DNA of 64,000 nucleotides from Myxococcales bacterium (GTDB lineage Bacteria > Myxococcota > Myxococcia > Myxococcales > 40CM-4-68-19). Position numbers and translations under genes: made by a program. The notes beneath the pieces were generated by a model. The model was not told where the DNA came from. It searched no databases and saw nothing but the letters and a program-made list of their open reading frames with translations. Position 1 is the first letter of the stretch, and every line of letters starts with the position of its first letter. The stretch covers positions 2,452 through 66,451 of the forward strand of contig DATBZA010000147.1 in assembly GCA_036513415.1 (NCBI GenBank), read 5' to 3'. Positions 10,047-55,541 of this stretch are shown here, in pieces.

Positions 10047-11543
10047 TCATGCGCTCAGCCGCCGCGGGACGCTGCGCAGGCCGCTGGCGCCGGTCTCCTG
10101 CGCCCGGTCGCCCTGCTCGTGGTACTCCGCGTCCTCGTTCACGCGCCACAGATCGTACAGCGGGCCGCCGCCCAGGATGTTCTTCACGCAGAGCATGGCC
10201 GTCATCATGGCGTGGTCCTGGTTGTTGTACTTGTGCATCCCGTTCCGTCCCACCAGGTGCAGCGTGGGAAAGCGGGCCTCGAGCTCGCGCCGGATCCTCT
10301 CCACGTTTTCGGCATAGCCGTCATCGTAGACGGGATATGCCTTCGGCTGGCGCACGACGCAGCCGTCGACCACGTCCAGGGCGGAAGCGAGGCCGATCTG
10401 CTGGATCTCCCGCTTGCCCAGGTCGATCAGCTCCGCGTCGCTCAGGGTCCAGAGGCCGTCGCCCTCGAAACAGAAGTACTCCAGGCCGTAGCAGGCCATC
10501 GACGGATCCGGCACCATCTCCGGCGACCAGGACTTGAAGTTCTGCACGCGCCCGACCTTCACCTTCGGGTCGTGGATGTAGATCCAGTTGTCGTCGAAGA
10601 CCTTCCGGTCCTTCAGGATCAGCACCACCGTGAGGAAGTCGCGGTAGCGCAGCCGCGCGGCGGCGGCGCGCGTCTCCTCCTCGATGCGAGGAGTGATTCC
10701 CAGGACCAGCTCGCGCAGAGGCGCCGAGGAGATCACGTGCGCCGCGCGGGTCTCGTGCCGGGCGCCCGCACGATCGACGTGAGTGAGCGTCCATTCGCGC
10801 CGGCCGGCGTCGAAGAAGCAGCCCACCACCTTCTCTCCCATGCGCACCGCGCCGCCCATCTCGCGCACCCGGCGCGCGCACGCTTCCCAGATCATCCCCG
10901 GCCCCTTGCGCGGGTAGCGGAAGGAATCGATCAGCGTCTTGATCACCGCGGACTTCTGCTTCGGCTTGCTCGCGGGCAGGAGCGCGTTGCGGATGGCGGC
11001 GCCGAGCGAGAGCCCCTTGATCCGCTGCGCCGCCCAGTCGGCGGAGATCTCCTTGCAGCTCATTCCCCACACCTTCTCGGTGTAGGTCCTGAAAAACATT
11101 CCGAAGAGCCTGCGGCCGAACTGGTTGCTCACCCAGTCCTCGAAGCTCCTCGGGTCGCGCACGGGAAAAAGCCGCGCCCTCAGATACGAGAGCACGCACC
11201 GCGCCGATTCGACCAGCCCCAGCTTGAGCAGCGCATCCGCCGCGCGGAGCGGGTAGGCGAAGAACTTGCCCCGGTAGAAGATGCGGGACGAGCGCGGCCT
11301 CTCGAGCAGGTCGTTGGGAAGCAGCTCCGTCCAGAGGTCCTCCACCTCCTTCGACTTGGAGAAGAACCGGTGCCCTCCGATGTCGAAGTGGTAGCCCTTG
11401 TAGCTGGCCGTTCGCGCGATGCCGCCGACCAGCCCGGGGTCGGCCTCGATCACCGTGACCGGGACGCCTTCCTTGGAGAGCAGATACGCAGCGGTGAGCC
11501 CGGCCGGGCCGGCGCCGATGATCGCGACCGTCTTTCCGCTCAT
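10047..11543 (-). CDS. NAD(P)/FAD-dependent oxidoreductase (amine-oxidase / UDP-galactopyranose-mutase-like Rossmann family)
   Basis: N-terminal dinucleotide fold KTVAIIGAGPAGLTAAYLLSKEG..VTVIE. 498 aa. First gene of a minus-strand three-gene operon. Confidence 0.85.
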   Translation of the reverse strand: MSGKTVAIIGAGPAGLTAAYLLSKEGVPVTVIEADPGLVGGIARTASYKGYHFDIGGHRFFSKSKEVEDLWTELLPNDLLERPRSSRIFYRGKFFAYPLRAADALLKLGLVESARCVLSYLRARLFPVRDPRSFEDWVSNQFGRRLFGMFFRTYTEKVWGMSCKEISADWAAQRIKGLSLGAAIRNALLPASKPKQKSAVIKTLIDSFRYPRKGPGMIWEACARRVREMGGAVRMGEKVVGCFFDAGRREWTLTHVDRAGARHETRAAHVISSAPLRELVLGITPRIEEETRAAAARLRYRDFLTVVLILKDRKVFDDNWIYIHDPKVKVGRVQNFKSWSPEMVPDPSMACYGLEYFCFEGDGLWTLSDAELIDLGKREIQQIGLASALDVVDGCVVRQPKAYPVYDDGYAENVERIRRELEARFPTLHLVGRNGMHKYNNQDHAMMTAMLCVKNILGGGPLYDLWRVNEDAEYHEQGDRAQETGASGLRSVPRRLSA

Positions 11544-11637
11544 GTGCGCTCATTGTCGCCCGCGCCTGCCGCGCCTGCCAAGGAAACATCCCCGGGAGGA
11601 AGCGTGCACCCGTGGCGAATCCGCATACACTGTATGC

Positions 11638-12996
11638 ATGCGGCGCGTCCTGATCGCGGATGACGAGGAATCGATCCGCCACGTGCTCACCGAGCTGCTC
11701 CACGAGCGCGGCTACGAAGTGCGCGCGGTGGCCGACGGCGAGGAGGCGATGCGCGAGCTGACCTCGCGCGACTACGACGCGCTGGTCACCGACGTGCGGA
11801 TGCCAAAGATGAACGGTCTCGATCTGGTCCGGGAGGCCCAGAGCGCGTCTCCAGAGACGACGATCATCGTGATGAGCGCGTACGGCTCACACGACCTGGC
11901 GATCGAGGCGATGAAGGCGGGCGCGTACGACTATCTCGGCAAGCCCTTCCGCCCCGACGAGGTGCTGCTGGTCCTGCGCAAGGCCGAGGAGCGCGAGCGG
12001 CTTCGCCGCGAGAACCTCCGGCTGCGGCAGGAAATGTTGCGCGGCGCTCCGCAGCTGGTCGCGGAGGGGCCGACCATGAAGGACGTGCTTCGCGTGGTGC
12101 ACAAGGTCGCGCGCGCGCCGACCACCGTGCTGATCGAGGGCGAGAGTGGGACCGGGAAGGAGCTCGTCGCCCGCGCCCTGCACGACCTGTCGCCCCGCGC
12201 CGAGCGCGCCTTCGTGGCCGTGAACTGCGGCGCGATCCCGGCGCAGCTGATCGAGAGCGAGCTGTTCGGCCACGCCAAGGGGGCTTTCACCGACGCCAGC
12301 GTCGCCAAGCGCGGCCTTTTCGAGGAGGCGGACGGGGGGACGCTGCTGCTCGACGAAATCGGCGAGCTCCCGATGCCGGTCCAGCCGACCCTGCTGCGGG
12401 CCATTCAAGAAAGCGAGGTGCGCCGGGTCGGCGACGCGCGGCCGACCCGCGTGGATGTGCGCCTGCTGGCGGCCACGAACCGGGACCTGGCCGCCGAGGT
12501 GCAAGCGGGGCGCTTCCGCGAGGACCTCTACTACCGCCTCAACGTCGTCCAGGTGCGGCTGCCGCCGCTGCGGGACCGGCAGGACGAGATCGCGGCCATC
12601 GCGGATCAGCTGCTCGCGCGCCACGCGAAGCGGATCGGGATCGCCACCCGGCGCCTCTCGCCACAGGCGCTGGAGCTGCTGCAGCGCTACCGCTGGCCCG
12701 GGAACGTTCGCGAGCTGGAGAACGCGCTCGAGCGGGCGCTGGTGCTCTCGGACGACGAGGAGATCGGGCCCGAATCGCTGCCGGACGCCGTGCAGCGCGC
12801 GGTCCCCCCGGAGCCGCCGCCGGCGCAGCTCAATGCCGACGATCTCTCGGTCAAGCGCGCGCAGCGCGTGCTCGAGGCGGACCTGATCCGGCGCGCGCTC
12901 GAGCGCACGCAGGGGAACCGCACTCGCGCGGCGGAGCTGCTCGAGCTCTCGCCGCGCGCGCTGCTCTACAAGATCCGCGAATACGGTCTCGAGTAG
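11638..12996 (+). CDS. sigma-54-dependent response regulator (NtrC family; PilR2-like by position)
   Basis: Receiver domain (RVLIADDEE...TDVRMPKMNG), AAA+ domain (GESGTGKE, GAFTDA, LLLDEIG) and a Fis-type HTH (NRTRAAELLELSPRALLYKIREYGL). ATG 11638 lies within ORF 11419..12996. Confidence 0.93.
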   Translation: MRRVLIADDEESIRHVLTELLHERGYEVRAVADGEEAMRELTSRDYDALVTDVRMPKMNGLDLVREAQSASPETTIIVMSAYGSHDLAIEAMKAGAYDYLGKPFRPDEVLLVLRKAEERERLRRENLRLRQEMLRGAPQLVAEGPTMKDVLRVVHKVARAPTTVLIEGESGTGKELVARALHDLSPRAERAFVAVNCGAIPAQLIESELFGHAKGAFTDASVAKRGLFEEADGGTLLLDEIGELPMPVQPTLLRAIQESEVRRVGDARPTRVDVRLLAATNRDLAAEVQAGRFREDLYYRLNVVQVRLPPLRDRQDEIAAIADQLLARHAKRIGIATRRLSPQALELLQRYRWPGNVRELENALERALVLSDDEEIGPESLPDAVQRAVPPEPPPAQLNADDLSVKRAQRVLEADLIRRALERTQGNRTRAAELLELSPRALLYKIREYGLE

Positions 12997-13024
12997 CCCC
13001 GGCCGCCGAAGGCGGCTTAGGGGC
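12996..13024 (+). terminator. GC-rich hairpin just after the regulator stop codon (possible terminator)
   Basis: GCCCC-g-GCCGCC-gaa-GGCGGC-tta-GGGGC. No T-tract follows. Confidence 0.35.
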
Positions 13025-13058
13025 TATGCTTGAGCGCCAGTCACATCCGGCCGCCGAC
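13020..13058. repeat. left copy of a ~37-bp direct repeat bounding the repeat nest
   Basis: GGGGCTATGCTTGAGCGCCAGTCACATCCGGCCGCCGA versus GGGGCCATGCTTGAGCGCGAGTCACGCCGGCCGCCGA at 13987..14023 (a few mismatches and one indel). Confidence 0.8.
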
Positions 13059-13079
13059 CGCGGGGCGTCGCTTCATCTG

Positions 13080-13258
13080 CGCTTAAGATCAACCGCAGAG
13101 CACGCCGAGCACGCAGAGGCGAAAAAGTCGACTCGAGTCATCTCTTTTATTGGGTTGGTCTCGTGCCACCCCGCGGCCGGAGCAACTCCGGGGCGCGGCA
13201 GTGGCGAGACGGTCATCACCCCCCAAATCTCTGCGTGCTCTGCGGTTGATCTGAAGCG
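13080..13258. mobile_element. family-A inverted-repeat element (MITE/REP-like), complete copy
   Basis: 26-bp arms CGCTTAAGATCAACCGCAGAGCACGC (13080..13105) and GCGTGCTCTGCGGTTGATCTGAAGCG (13233..13258), one mismatch, 127-bp interior. Related copies lie at 47262..47362 and 55378..55425. Confidence 0.75.
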
Positions 13259-13273
13259 GTAGTTACTTGATCG

Positions 13274-13475
13274 CGGGAGGTCTGCCCAATTCAATTTCAG
13301 CCACACTCACGGGCTGCGCGAGCCTTCGCAACTCGTTCCGGAATTTCCGGAACGACTTCGGCGAAGGCTCGGCTGCCCGTGAACCCGAACGGCTCTGTAG
13401 TAAAAGCCCGGGGTCGATGCGAAGCGAAGGTCCGGTTCGCCAGCAGGGTAGCGGTTGATTTGGGCAGACCTCCCG
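13274..13475. mobile_element. family-B inverted-repeat element (MITE-like)
   Basis: 21-bp arms CGGGAGGTCTGCCCAATTCAA (13274..13294) and TTGATTTGGGCAGACCTCCCG (13455..13475), one mismatch. The same GGTCTGCCCAA motif recurs at 13768..13785 and in the 55457..55527 element. Confidence 0.7.
13311..13378. repeat. long imperfect hairpin/cruciform (~30 paired positions) centred on palindrome P1
   Basis: GGGCTGCGCGAGCCTTCGCAACTCGTTCCGGAA-T-TTCCGGAACGACTTCGGCGAAGGCTCGGCTGCCC. Hand pairing gives a 21-nt perfect core (13334..13354) and a 10-bp outer helix GAGCCTTCGC/GCGAAGGCTC. Confidence 0.75.
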
Positions 13476-13538
13476 GCCGACCAGGGACCAGCACACGGCG
13501 GCCTGTGCTCCGGGCTCCTCATGATCTGTGGCGTTGTG

Positions 13539-13567
13539 AACTCGTTCCAGAAATTCCGGAACGAGTT
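13539..13567. repeat. 29-bp palindrome P2
   Basis: AACTCGTTCCAGAAATTCCGGAACGAGTT, 13 of 14 positions self-complementary. Confidence 0.85.
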
Positions 13568-13847
13568 GCCTGCGGCATGCCATCTCCCCGCCCTCATGAA
13601 CAGCCAATCGCAGCTCGCGTCGGCAGAGCGCTCGGATTCACGACCTGCGCCGCTTCGTCCAACTCGTTCCCGAAAATGTGCTTCGACGATTCAGCCAGCG
13701 CAGCTGCGAGATGATCGCTGTTGACGGCCCTAATGATCGTGTGCCCGGGAGATGTGACGGATCATCATTTGGGCAGACCTTCCCGCGGGTCCCGGCACGG
13801 CAACCGCAAAGCTCCGGGTCTCATTCCGGTCAGGCCGGTCCATTTTG

Positions 13848-13876
13848 AACTCGTTCCGGAAATTTCGGAACGAGTT
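13848..13876. repeat. 29-bp palindrome P3
   Basis: AACTCGTTCCGGAAATTTCGGAACGAGTT, 13 of 14 positions self-complementary (the exception would be a G-U pair in RNA). Confidence 0.85.
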
Positions 13877-13986
13877 GCCGCGGGACCACCACAACCGGCG
13901 CGCGCCCGGCCCCCACGAACAGCCAAAGACGGCTCGCGGCGGTAGAGCGCTCGGATTCACGGACTGCGCGAGCCTTCGCAGGCTCA

Positions 13987-14023
13987 GGGGCCATGCTTGA
14001 GCGCGAGTCACGCCGGCCGCCGA
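13987..14023. repeat. right copy of the ~37-bp direct repeat bounding the repeat nest
   Basis: See 13020..13058. Confidence 0.8.
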
Positions 14024-14149
14024 AGATCGACCGCGAGTCAGCCGGGTGCCCGAATGCAGTGCGGCGGGGTGCGCGCAACTGCGTCGCCGCACCACGTTTG
14101 GTCCTCCTGAAATGTAGCTCCTATGGAAGCAAAGCAGGCGCAATGACGG

Positions 14150-14169
14150 GTCAATGAGGGGTCATTGAC
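14150..14169. promoter_or_regulatory. candidate operator: 20-bp palindrome plus a third half-site upstream of the XRE gene
   Basis: GTCAATGA-GGGG-TCATTGAC is perfectly symmetric. An extra CAATGAC half-site lies at 14141..14147. The site is 50-80 bp upstream of the HTH gene start. Confidence 0.45.
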
Positions 14170-14245
14170 GGCTCAACGCGGCCGGTTCCTTGACTGCCTA
14201 CACGATGCCAAAGCAAGGATGAATCACTGCTCGCGGAGGGGCCGC

Positions 14246-14473
14246 GTGAATCGAGTTCAGAAGTTCCGGGAAGCAGCGTTGATGGCGAAGGCGGAGCTGG
14301 CTCGCAAGGCCGGCGTCTCCGAGTCGACCGTCGACCGGATCGAGGCCGGCCACGACTGCCGGATGGAGACCAAGCGCAAGATCCTCATCGCGCTCGGTCT
14401 CAGCATCCAGGAGAGCGGAAAACTCTTCCCCCGCCACAACGGCGCGACGCGGCTGCGCGTGGGGAGACCGTGA
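14246..14473 (+). CDS. XRE-family helix-turn-helix transcriptional regulator (small)
   Basis: VNRVQKFREAALMAKAELARKAGVSESTVDRIEAGHDCRMETKRKILIALGL is a classic Cro/C1 HTH. GTG 14246 or ATG 14219 lie within ORF 14165..14473. Confidence 0.75.
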   Translation: MNRVQKFREAALMAKAELARKAGVSESTVDRIEAGHDCRMETKRKILIALGLSIQESGKLFPRHNGATRLRVGRP

Positions 14474-14555
14474 TGATGGAAGTTTTTGGCGACATCTCTT
14501 CCGATGCTAGCGTCGACCCAGGGCCGCTGACGTCCAGAGAGGGGGGCTGACGGCC

Positions 14556-15626
14556 ATGGCCAAGAGCAAGCTCGCGCTCGGACTCGACATCGGCTCGTCT
14601 TCGGTGAAGCTGGTCCAGCTGAAGGAGGCGAAGCGCGGCTACATCCTGGAGGCGTTCGGGGTCGCCGCGCTGCCGCCCGAGGCCATCGTCGACGGCGCGC
14701 TGATGAACTCGACGGCCATTGTCGAGGCCATCCGCGGGCTGGTGTCCCAGTACAAGCTGAAGAACCGCGAAGCCGCCATCGGGGTCTCCGGACACTCGGT
14801 CATCATCAAGAAGATCAGCATGCCGAAGATGACCCAGGAGGAGCTCGAGGAGAGCATCCAGTGGGAGGCGGAGCAGTACATCCCCTTCGACGTCAAGGAC
14901 GTGAACATCGACGTGCAGATCCTCACGCCGCCCGACGTGGACACGGGCACGGGCCAGATGGACGTGCTCCTGGTGGCGGCGAAGAAGGACATGATCAACG
15001 ACTACACCTCGGTGGTGTCGGAGGCGGGCCTGACGCCGGTGGTGGTCGACGTCGACGCCTTCGCGGTGCAGAACTCGTTCGAGGTCAACTACGAGCTGCC
15101 CAAGAACGAGACCATCGTGCTGGTCAACGCCGGCGCGAGCGTCTGCAACATCAACGTGCTGGCGAACGGGCTGACCACCTTCACGCGCGACGTGACGATG
15201 GGCGGCAACCAGTTCACCGAAGAGATCCAGAAGCAGCTCAACGTCAGCTACGACGAAGCCGAGAAGCTGAAGGTGGGAGGCGACGCCGCCCAGGACTCCG
15301 ACTCCGTGGTCCCGCAGGAAGTGGAGCGCGTCATCCAGGGCGTGGCCGACCAGATGGCCGGCGAGATCCAGCGCTCGCTCGACTTCTACACCGCCACCGC
15401 CGCCGACTCGCACATCGCGCGGCTCTACCTCTCCGGCGGCACCGCCAAGATCCCCGCGCTCTTCAAGGTGATCGAGCAGCGGGTGGGCGTGCCCGTCGAG
15501 ATCCTCAACCCCTTCAAGGGCGTGGAGATCGACAACCGCCGCTTCGACCCCAACACCGTGATGGACGTCGCTCCTTCGGCGGCCGTCGCCATCGGGCTTG
15601 CCTTGCGCAAGTCGAACGAGCGGTAG
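14556..15626 (+). CDS. pilM: type IV pilus assembly protein PilM (actin-like ATPase fold)
   Basis: LGLDIGSSSVKLVQL N-terminus, 356 aa, first gene of a pilMNOPQ run. Confidence 0.95.
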   Translation: MAKSKLALGLDIGSSSVKLVQLKEAKRGYILEAFGVAALPPEAIVDGALMNSTAIVEAIRGLVSQYKLKNREAAIGVSGHSVIIKKISMPKMTQEELEESIQWEAEQYIPFDVKDVNIDVQILTPPDVDTGTGQMDVLLVAAKKDMINDYTSVVSEAGLTPVVVDVDAFAVQNSFEVNYELPKNETIVLVNAGASVCNINVLANGLTTFTRDVTMGGNQFTEEIQKQLNVSYDEAEKLKVGGDAAQDSDSVVPQEVERVIQGVADQMAGEIQRSLDFYTATAADSHIARLYLSGGTAKIPALFKVIEQRVGVPVEILNPFKGVEIDNRRFDPNTVMDVAPSAAVAIGLALRKSNER

Positions 15627-47261: not shown

Positions 47262-47362
47262 GCTTCATTTCAACCGCAGAGCGCCCAGAGCGCGCAGAGA
47301 TCTGGTGTGGTTCGGTACAGAAACCCAAAAAACCTCCGCGCGCTCTGCGGTTGAAATGAAGC
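47262..47362. mobile_element. family-A inverted-repeat element (REP/MITE-like) between convergent genes; likely bidirectional terminator
   Basis: Perfect 23-bp arms GCTTCATTTCAACCGCAGAGCGC (47262..47284) and GCGCTCTGCGGTTGAAATGAAGC (47340..47362). Shares the CAACCGCAGAGC core with 13080..13258. Confidence 0.75.
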
Positions 47363-47371
47363 GCTAGTGGA

Positions 47372-55377: not shown

Positions 55378-55425
55378 GCTTCAGATCAACCGCCGAGCAC
55401 GCCGAGCACGCCGAGATGGAAAAGT
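55378..55425. repeat. family-A repeat, solo arm
   Basis: GCTTCAGATCAACCGCCGAGCACGCCGAGCACGCCGAGATGGAAAAG is near-identical to 13081..13128. No partner arm was found. Confidence 0.7.
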
Positions 55426-55456
55426 AGGCTGAGGAAGTTTTTTGGGGGGGTCTAGC

Positions 55457-55527
55457 GAGGTCTGCCCCCAATCGATCCCGTGAGCGGTTCTGGGCCATGC
55501 CGGCGGCAATTGATTTGGGCAGACCTC
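55457..55527. mobile_element. family-B mini inverted-repeat element
   Basis: Arms GAGGTCTGCCCCCAATCGAT and CAATTGATTTGGGCAGACCTC around a ~30-nt loop, between convergent rsmA and the tautomerase gene. Confidence 0.7.
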
Positions 55528-55541
55528 TGGCGCCACGCTCA

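Follow-up and report, generated by a model that had tools for sequence, protein, structure and literature searches.

A mosaic of small hairpin-forming repeats between a sigma54 regulator gene and the pilMNOPQ operon of a soil myxobacterium

The bacterial interspersed mosaic elements (BIMEs) of enterobacteria are built from REP/PU palindromes, and the Rhizobium-specific intergenic mosaic elements (RIMEs) are a further class of such mosaics. The Correia or NEMIS elements of Neisseria are miniature inverted-repeat transposable elements (MITEs). In the REPIN/RAYT systems, hairpin repeats are spread by a single-copy domesticated HUH transposase. Here we describe a repeat nest of 1 kb at positions 12997-14034 of a 64-kb stretch of DNA (the window) from an uncultured soil member of Myxococcota. 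The nest is intergenic and non-coding, starts immediately behind the gene of a sigma54-dependent response regulator, and lies upstream of the pilMNOPQ operon. It is a stack of a family A hairpin, lineage-specific modules each joined to one half of a 29-nt palindrome (P), some of which also carry the 21-nt repeat of family B, and a 48-bp unit C with a variable copy number. The nest is very probably an intergenic mosaic of small non-coding hairpin-forming repeats that accumulated recently in one lineage of soil myxobacteria.

The nest is closest to the BIME/RIME mosaics and to MITE clusters, of which it is a lineage-specific example. With BIMEs and RIMEs it shares a construction from short imperfect palindromes (about 30 nt) and a small number of conserved non-palindromic motifs, the order and orientation of which vary, and its elements are likewise extragenic, located mostly at the 3' ends of genes and between convergent genes. 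The 29-nt palindrome of the nest is repeated at many extragenic sites, together with a limited set of recurring flanks (a/b, c, d, e, f, and g) in variable order. Clusters that vary between strains are a shared trait as well, and many copies per genome are probably another. In contrast to BIMEs and RIMEs, the nest has unrelated sequences, its modules are longer (60-105 nt), its clusters reach 1 kb, its host is an uncultured myxobacterium, and no GTAG-type motif or RAYT gene was identified.

Families A and B resemble MITEs, since they are gene-less, 100-200 bp long, have terminal inverted repeats of 21-30 nt, form long hairpins, and give rise to insertion polymorphisms between related strains. 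The family A element of the nest has 179 bp and the family B element 202 bp, and neither is coding. They differ from MITEs in that they lack a readable target-site duplication and a known parent insertion sequence, and in that the arms of family A are arrays of 9-nt repeats instead of a plain terminal inverted repeat. No transposase was found as an autonomous partner; gene-carrying versions of family A hold a GxxExxY gene, and no such version was found for B/P. As in REPIN/RAYT systems, gene-less family A hairpins coexist across genomes with versions that enclose a gene of a nuclease family, and by analogy this suggests an enzyme-plus-repeat partnership of family A hairpins and the GxxExxY gene. 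The candidate enzyme differs from RAYT, as it has the PD-(D/E)XK fold of GxxExxY proteins and is not a Y1/HUH transposase, and its gene is positioned inside the hairpin.

Repeat composition of the nest

The repeats were evaluated by comparing pattern counts with those in shuffled sequence and by z-scores of hairpin folds relative to shuffled controls. The pattern counts in the window exceed those in all shuffles, and the stability of the hairpins is far above that of the shuffled controls. All the repeats named in a preliminary description of this DNA are present, and none of them would be expected by chance. The features of the nest, its borders, and the two other places in the window with the same repeats are as follows.

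12997..13024, plus strand: GC-rich terminator-like hairpin GCCCCGGCCGCC-GAA-GGCGGCTTAGGGGC directly after the regulator stop codon, from a predicted fold
13011..13058, plus strand: unit C, 48 bp, GGCGGCTTAGGGGCTATGCTTGAGCGCCAGTCACATCCGGCCGCCGA, holding the left 37-mer; 0, 1, or 2 tandem copies depending on the strain
13080..13258, no strand: family A hairpin element, 179 bp, with a nested inner hairpin and 30-nt inverted termini of 9-nt units AACCGCAGAG-CACGCCGAG-CACGCAGAG
13274..13475, no strand: family B/P element 1, 202 bp, with the outer 21-nt inverted repeat CGGGAGGTCTGCCCAAWTCAA
13476..13538, no strand: module d, flank of palindrome P2; copies at unrelated loci L134 (87%), L121, L141, and L145
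13539..13567, no strand: palindrome P2, AACTCGTTCCAGAAATTCCGGAACGAGTT, from sequence scan and fold
13568..13659, plus strand: module b, copy 1, with the conserved core CACGAACAGCCAAA..GCTCGCGTCGGCAGAGCGCTCGGATTCACG; 17 flanks belong to this class
13660..13674, no strand: lone half-P site, where a 138-bp deletion relative to contig L006 starts
13675..13765, minus strand: module g, truncated; inverted in L006 together with 13345-13674; a half-P-joined copy is present at the unrelated locus L141
13767..13847, no strand: solo B inverted repeat (13767-13786) followed by module c (..GGTCTCATTCCGGTCAGGCCGGTCCATTTTG), from a repeat match and flank class c
13848..13876, no strand: palindrome P3, from sequence scan and fold
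13877..13980, plus strand: module b, copy 2, cut off where P would normally follow, from a repeat match and flank class
13981..14025, plus strand: diverged right-hand copy of unit C, holding the right 37-mer, from a repeat match
14035..14245, plus strand: right boundary, the conserved upstream region of the XRE-HTH/pilMNOPQ operon, outside the nest and present in every strain variant including the empty site
47264..47368, no strand: second family A copy with the same termini and a different interior, filling the gap between two convergent genes; fold z = -6.2
55378..55530, no strand: left arm and left interior of family A (55378 to ~55450), then a short B-type hairpin (55455-55530), between convergent genes

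The direct repeats of ~37 bp, which the preliminary description had placed at the bounds of the stretch, are real and directly oriented. The segments 13014-13057 and 13981-14023 that hold them are 88.6% identical over 44 nt, and the window contains the core pattern of the 37-mer at exactly two places, whereas 100 shuffles contain none. The left 37-mer is part of unit C, the start of which is also the 3' half of the terminator-like hairpin at 12997..13024. The inverted-repeat elements of family A at 13080..13258 and of family B at 13274..13475 are confirmed by their arms and folds. The 30-nt arms of family A (13080-13109 and 13229-13258) are 93% complementary, with a fold z-score of -6.9, and the 21-nt arms of family B (13274-13294 and 13455-13475) are 95% complementary, with a z-score of -9.3. 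Inside B/P element 1, there is a 79-nt palindrome at 13307-13382, the centre of which is the 29-nt palindrome P1 (13330-13358); the fold z-score of the segment 13300-13390 is -10.1. In total, the nest contains 3.5 copies of P.

Pieces of the right half of the nest recur at a spacing of 309-319 nt: 13458-13477 corresponds to 13767-13786, 13534-13650 to 13843-13969 (76.6% identity), and the P palindromes at 13539 and 13848 share this spacing. The segments connecting these pieces, 13478-13533 in module d and 13787-13842 in module c, are unrelated. The "two diverged ~310-bp tandem units" of the preliminary description thus hold as recurring pieces and not as a plain tandem duplication: they are two mosaic units that share the B repeat, P, and module b, and differ in the linker (d versus c). 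Class c comprises seven flanks, four of which are from contigs of unrelated loci (L119, L135, L152, and L153) and three from the nest locus itself. When the window was compared with itself, repeats were found at only two further places, 47264-47368 and 55378-55530, each of them between convergent genes.

GC content gives no codon-position signal over 12900-14100, where its spread is 0.03-0.13, compared with 0.43-0.70 in the flanking genes, and a Pfam scan of the open reading frames (ORFs) inside the nest (45-137 amino acids) gave no match. The earlier statement that the stretch has no credible ORF therefore stands.

Variation of the locus among related strains

The locus was compared in soil-metagenome contigs from several studies that encode an identical PilM; eight of the ten shown span the gap between the regulator gene and pilM. 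Five distances between the regulator stop codon and pilM are observed (525, 562, 752, 1559-1561, and 1857 bp), and the sites differ as follows, with identities to the window given for the regulator gene and for the HTH-pil region on the other side of the gap.

L008: empty gap, the TAG stop codon being followed by CCCCG/AGTCGCGCGGG (CCCCG/AGTCGCGCGGGTATTCGAATG); 86% regulator, 97% HTH-pil
L005: empty gap with 37 additional nt, in which only the right tip of family A, TGATCTGAAGCGG, is left; 94% regulator, 97% HTH-pil
L001: family A only, without the 48-bp unit or the B/P modules; 96% regulator, 98% HTH-pil
Window, L002, L003, L004, and L009: full nest; flanks at least 99.6% identical
L006: full nest, rearranged; 99.4% regulator, 99.7% HTH-pil

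The contigs L002, L003, and L009 are 99.8-100% identical to the window over the aligned stretch of the gap, and L004 is near-identical. Because the same arrangement occurs in three independent metagenome assemblies (L002, L003, and L009), the nest is not an assembly artefact. More distant relatives, the PilM proteins of which are 80-91% identical to that of the window, keep the gene order HisKA, sigma54 regulator, HTH, pilMNOPQ and have only ~190-245 bp at the position of the nest. Since related strains and these relatives are without it, the extra kilobase is recent and dispensable. The identity of the flanks rises from the empty site through the scar and A-only sites to the full nest, which fits a stepwise gain, and the nest appears to have been acquired in the order empty site, family A, full nest. 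The 37-nt remnant in L005 can be read as a deletion scar of family A.

The preliminary description had offered one insertion or duplication event as a possible origin. The nest would then be a single composite insertion or a segmental duplication, with the ~37-bp repeats at its ends as a long target-site duplication or as substrates of recombination. The 37-mers are real, share their orientation, and bracket nearly all of the extra DNA, as such an event would predict. However, an empty site was expected to keep a single 37-mer, and the empty (L008), scar (L005), and A-only (L001) sites have none; the 37-mer was therefore not in the target. In L001, family A occupies the site without any 37-mer, and a single 37-mer without the interior was not seen in the eight gap-spanning contigs. 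Furthermore, the 48-bp unit C that contains the left 37-mer varies by itself: on the left side it is missing from L001, L005, and L008, single in L002-L004, L009, and the window, and present as two tandem copies in L006. This makes a single event very unlikely, and we prefer the gradual assembly of the nest from separate elements. No further copy of unit C or of the 37-mer was found in ~1.3 Mb of fetched sequence, and within this sample the 37-mers do not appear as a generic repeat of many loci. Unit C may have originated by local duplication or be a rare element.

One contig, L139, corresponds to window positions 14019-10823, and past the right 37-mer (after ..GAGTCACGCCGGCCG; L139:1-466) its sequence enters the middle of a uracil-DNA-glycosylase-like ORF. 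L139 is probably a chimeric assembly at the repeat and possibly a real rearrangement. It was not used as a sign of a dispersed 37-mer because the join looks chimeric.

The nest of L006 is rearranged, although in 4.6 kb of flank only 18 substitutions separate L006 from the window. The segment 13345-13765 is inverted, and the inversion of ~435 bp is bounded by inverted 14-nt half-P sites. L006 has one more unit C than the window, a 20-bp duplication of the B repeat, an extra 138 bp, the corresponding deletion of which in the window starts exactly at a P centre (13674/13675), and an extra 69 bp with a half-P that are missing from the window at 13765/13766. The unrelated locus L141 shows a half-P to be the normal neighbour of module g, and the differences are most simply read as an inversion between the two inverted half-P sites with subsequent deletions. 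For the same reason, a 233-bp insertion into the centre of P in L006 was dropped as an explanation. P is its own reverse complement, and any two copies are therefore both direct and inverted repeats, between which recombination could delete or invert the intervening DNA.

Invertons, in which a segment between inverted sites flips and changes the expression of nearby genes, classically adjoin pilus and fimbrial operons. A phase-variable switch of this kind, with the half-P sites as its borders, would account for an inversion of ~435 bp between two genomes with flanks at least 99.4% identical, and the location beside pilus genes would be typical. Against it, no recombinase is present among the immediate neighbours (the regulator, the HTH gene, and pilM), to which the Pfam scan within the 64-kb window was confined. 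The inverted segment contains no promoter-like sequence and is ~500 bp or more from the HTH gene, with a conserved promoter region in between. The window and L006 also differ by several insertions and deletions, so that they are not simple flip states, and the alternative orientation occurs in a single contig. Programmed inversion at the P palindromes is a less likely proposal than the family A cassette considered below, and an inverton controlling pilus genes is very unlikely; recombination between mosaic palindromes is preferred for the L006 arrangement.

The borders of the locus vary on a larger scale as well. Between L008 and the window, the regulator gene is 86% identical, the adjoining pil region is 97% identical, and the PilM proteins are identical; this uneven divergence across the junction is compatible with recombination at this spot. 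In L155:3800-5660 and L157:3600-5620, wholly different genes precede the HTH-pilM operon, and the sigma54 regulator is missing. The PilM proteins of these two loci are 88-91% identical to that of the window, and that of L155 is the same as in L154. Because the upstream genes are different in L155 and L157, the junction between the regulator and HTH-pilM is also a breakpoint of synteny between genomes.

Dispersed copies and the family A hairpins

The distribution of P was examined in Joint Genome Institute metagenomes by a scan for the exact 20-nt core AACTCGTTCCGGAAWTTCCGGAACGAGTT. The core was found in 35 metagenome stretches, 30 of which are high-GC soil contigs, and the palindrome extends past the scanned core in 24-27 of these 30. 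Grouping by flank clusters gives ~19 distinct P loci, only one of which (L139) is the nest locus. The flanks leading outward from P fall into the recurrent classes b (the reverse of which is a), c, d, e, f, and g, which are combined differently from locus to locus, and several of them lead to the 21-nt B repeat. A BLAST comparison of the nest with all fetched loci identified copies with 76-98% identity for most of 13075-13980, including the interior of family A and the succession of A and B (L132 and L141). No paralog was found in the fetched loci for ~13398-13454, ~13715-13766, and both 48-bp units.

Copies of P and family A are located just past the 3' ends of genes, often between convergent genes. 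The genes beside P are unrelated and include those for YceI, phospholipase D, isochorismatase, AhpC, FHA, and Ser/Thr kinase proteins. Ten ORFs neighbouring P were scanned as candidate transposases and rejected, as all are housekeeping genes or lack a Pfam hit; no transposase was among them. A RAYT (Y1 transposase) gene was likewise not seen among the scanned neighbours, the host sequence covered being 64 kb plus scattered contigs. BLAST of the nest against plasmids and phages gave no match, and scans of viral contigs gave none for families A and P and three for family B, which are taken as chance. A literature search on the nest sequences and on myxobacterial repeats or MITEs returned nothing relevant. 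The alternative proposal of the preliminary description, a hotspot where small non-autonomous elements pile up, is supported by the absence of the nest from related strains and relatives, by its apparently stepwise accumulation, and by the presence of most modules at many unrelated loci.

Families A and B/P are directly adjacent at several independent loci (window 55378-55530, L141:1650-1800, and L132:280-960), where 16-22 nt separate the end of family A from the B repeat. The arrangement suggests that one element targets the other or that both move as a block. Near P copies, at L006:8650-8700 (gap coordinates 560-610) and in the flanks of L131, L135, L149, and L152, two more sequences recur: another palindromic module, GGTTCAACCGGTTGAACC, and a variant palindrome half, GGACTCGCCCCGGGGA, which pairs with a half-P of the normal type. 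The repeat family is therefore larger than the window shows.

Family A is distributed more widely. A scan of one genome per species for its terminus TCAACCGCMGAGCRCNCMGAG gave at least 105 stretches; these belong to more than 10 phyla, and several genomes have multiple matches. Among the matches listed are Acidobacteriota, Planctomycetota, Gemmatimonadota, Deltaproteobacteria and Myxococcales, NC10/Methylomirabilota, Verrucomicrobiota, KSB1, Chloroflexota, Bacteroidota, and others. Elements of this type are hairpins of 66-350 bp, the arms of which are arrays of 8-9-nt units (C[GA]C[AC][AG]AG..). The outermost unit reads ..AACCGCAGAG / CTCTGCGGTT..., that is, ..AACCGC(A/C)GAG. Variant units (CCGAG, CAAAG, and CACAG) usually change on both arms together, with L098 as an exception. 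Fifteen loci with family A-type hairpins gave no match to Rfam at the gathering score.

Some of these hairpins enclose a gene of the GxxExxY family (TIGR04256/PF13366; PD-(D/E)XK fold), the ORF of which has ~125 amino acids. The genes found inside hairpins of 9-nt units are the following.

L032:2110-2650, minus strand
L021:1781-2230; the right arm is a CTGTG variant missed by the strict pattern count
L064:200-880
L091:1640-2165
L160:560-1080
L170:475-1125
L174:555-1030

The arms of family A in the window (AACCGCAGAG-CACGCCGAG-CACGCAGAG and its inverse) have the same architecture as those around the GxxExxY genes in L032, L064, L091, L160, and L174. In all four fetched loci that were found through their arms, the GxxExxY ORF lies between the left and the right array. 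When the search was started from the protein, both arrays were present within 150-170 nt of the ORF at three of four distinct loci from different environments, and the fourth has a right arm only, read by eye; the background density of the arrays is 0.04 per kb per orientation. Contigs shorter than 2 kb encode many of the GxxExxY proteins in the database, which would be expected if the repeats break assemblies there. In the window, the interior of family A (13110-13228) contains no ORF, and a tblastn search of the whole window with GxxExxY gave no match; the copies in the window are therefore miniature, gene-less forms. An interval in L032 with family A termini 1.5 kb apart was rejected as an autonomous element, as it contains a toxin-antitoxin pair and a LuxR-type regulator and its termini belong to separate hairpins.

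The function of the GxxExxY family is listed as unknown, and "multiple transfers" of it have been noted (PMC3424549). The searchable literature on the family contains passing mentions only, and a sequence search of the PDB with a GxxExxY protein gave no match. It is conceivable, and we propose it only tentatively, that family A represents, in gene-less form, a mobile hairpin cassette present across more than 10 phyla, the full form of which encloses the GxxExxY gene, and that the nuclease mobilises or maintains both forms. If so, this would be a partnership like that of REP and RAYT on a different enzyme fold, and it would provide a function for a very large protein family.

Relation to the pilus genes and origin of the nest

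The gene to the left of the nest (11419-12996) encodes a pilR2-like sigma54-dependent response regulator with the Pfam domains Response_reg, Sigma54_activat, and HTH_8. To the right, the conserved upstream region of 210 bp is followed by a small XRE-type HTH gene (~14246-14473), pilM (14556-15626), and pilNOPQ. The nest is therefore placed in the spacer between regulator and pilM, as the preliminary description had it, and the HTH gene, which that description passed over, intervenes before pilM. An XRE-family HTH gene of 63-83 codons precedes pilM in all the relatives examined (L154-L159). The closest named homologues of PilM are from metagenome-assembled genomes of Myxococcales (86%) and from Anaeromyxobacteraceae (77%). 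At 14140-14175, upstream of the HTH gene, there is an operator-like triple repeat of TGACGGGTCAATGAGGGGTCATTGACGGCTCAA, which is kept in every strain variant including the empty site. It may be the site through which the HTH protein, encoded first in the pilMNOPQ operon, regulates its own expression.

The position of the nest upstream of pilMNOPQ and beside the genes of two DNA-binding regulators raises the question of whether it is a cis-regulatory region of the pilus operon. P could be a site for the sigma54 activator or the XRE protein, and as a well-conserved 29-nt palindrome it is of a type that a dimeric protein could bind; alternatively, the hairpins could be structured RNAs or leaders. 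Yet the nest is missing from strains with flanks 86-98% identical that have an identical PilM and the conserved downstream promoter region, and also from the more distant relatives, and P occurs at ~19 loci at the 3' ends of unrelated genes. No promoter-like site was detected in 12800-14700, and the Rfam 15 covariance models gave no match in 12800-14600 at E ≤ 1. Module b is conserved in sequence but not in fold (consensus of -4 kcal/mol) and shows no covariation, and it was rejected as a structured RNA. The suggestion that the repeats are a set of structured RNAs for the pilus operon thus failed on several counts, including the dispensability of the nest and the location of its modules beside unrelated genes elsewhere, and a regulatory region is highly unlikely. 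Apart from adding hairpins behind the regulator gene, the nest most likely plays no dedicated part in pilus expression.

Several points weigh against our interpretation of the nest as a recently accumulated repeat mosaic. The order of events rests on the divergence of the flanks and not on a phylogeny, and no target-site duplication is readable when the empty and filled sites (L008, L001, and the full nest) are compared. Mobility is deduced from distribution, and no mobilising enzyme was found for any of the families in the window or the fetched loci. Unit C occurs nowhere else in the sampled sequence and may have arisen by local duplication instead of dispersal, and the inversion is seen in L006 only. 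The copy numbers are minimum counts from the genome scan and counts of the exact 20-nt core from the metagenome scan, and do not refer to the host genome.

In the mechanism that we consider, the elements would be spread by enzymes supplied in trans. The GxxExxY PD-(D/E)XK nuclease is the candidate enzyme for family A, as other genomes contain the same hairpin in versions that carry the gene. The 3' ends of genes would tolerate the elements, since the promoter on the right stays intact. The palindromes may then serve as substrates for recombination or hairpin processing, by which DNA is inverted and deleted. The effect on the pilus genes is probably limited to the extra hairpins behind the regulator gene, which would act as transcript-end or insulator structures.

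The element families appear to be undescribed, and the kind of feature is an ordinary one. The 1 kb upstream of the pilus genes represents selfish or neutral repeat DNA that differs between close strains, and is neither a pilus regulator nor an RNA operon nor an overlooked gene. In annotation, such DNA leads to spurious ORFs, of which those called inside the nest have 78-137 amino acids, and in metagenome assembly, such nests break contigs or make them chimeric, L139 being a possible example. For strain typing, the nest marks a clade with flanks at least 99.4% identical. With respect to genome dynamics, the palindromes would drive inversion and deletion far faster than point mutation, as the 18 substitutions in the 4.6-kb flank compare with five structural changes in 1 kb. 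Two points of interest are the inversion between palindromes in near-identical genomes and the link between the family A hairpin and GxxExxY across phyla. If the latter is confirmed, a huge protein family of unknown function would be tied to a class of mobile hairpins.

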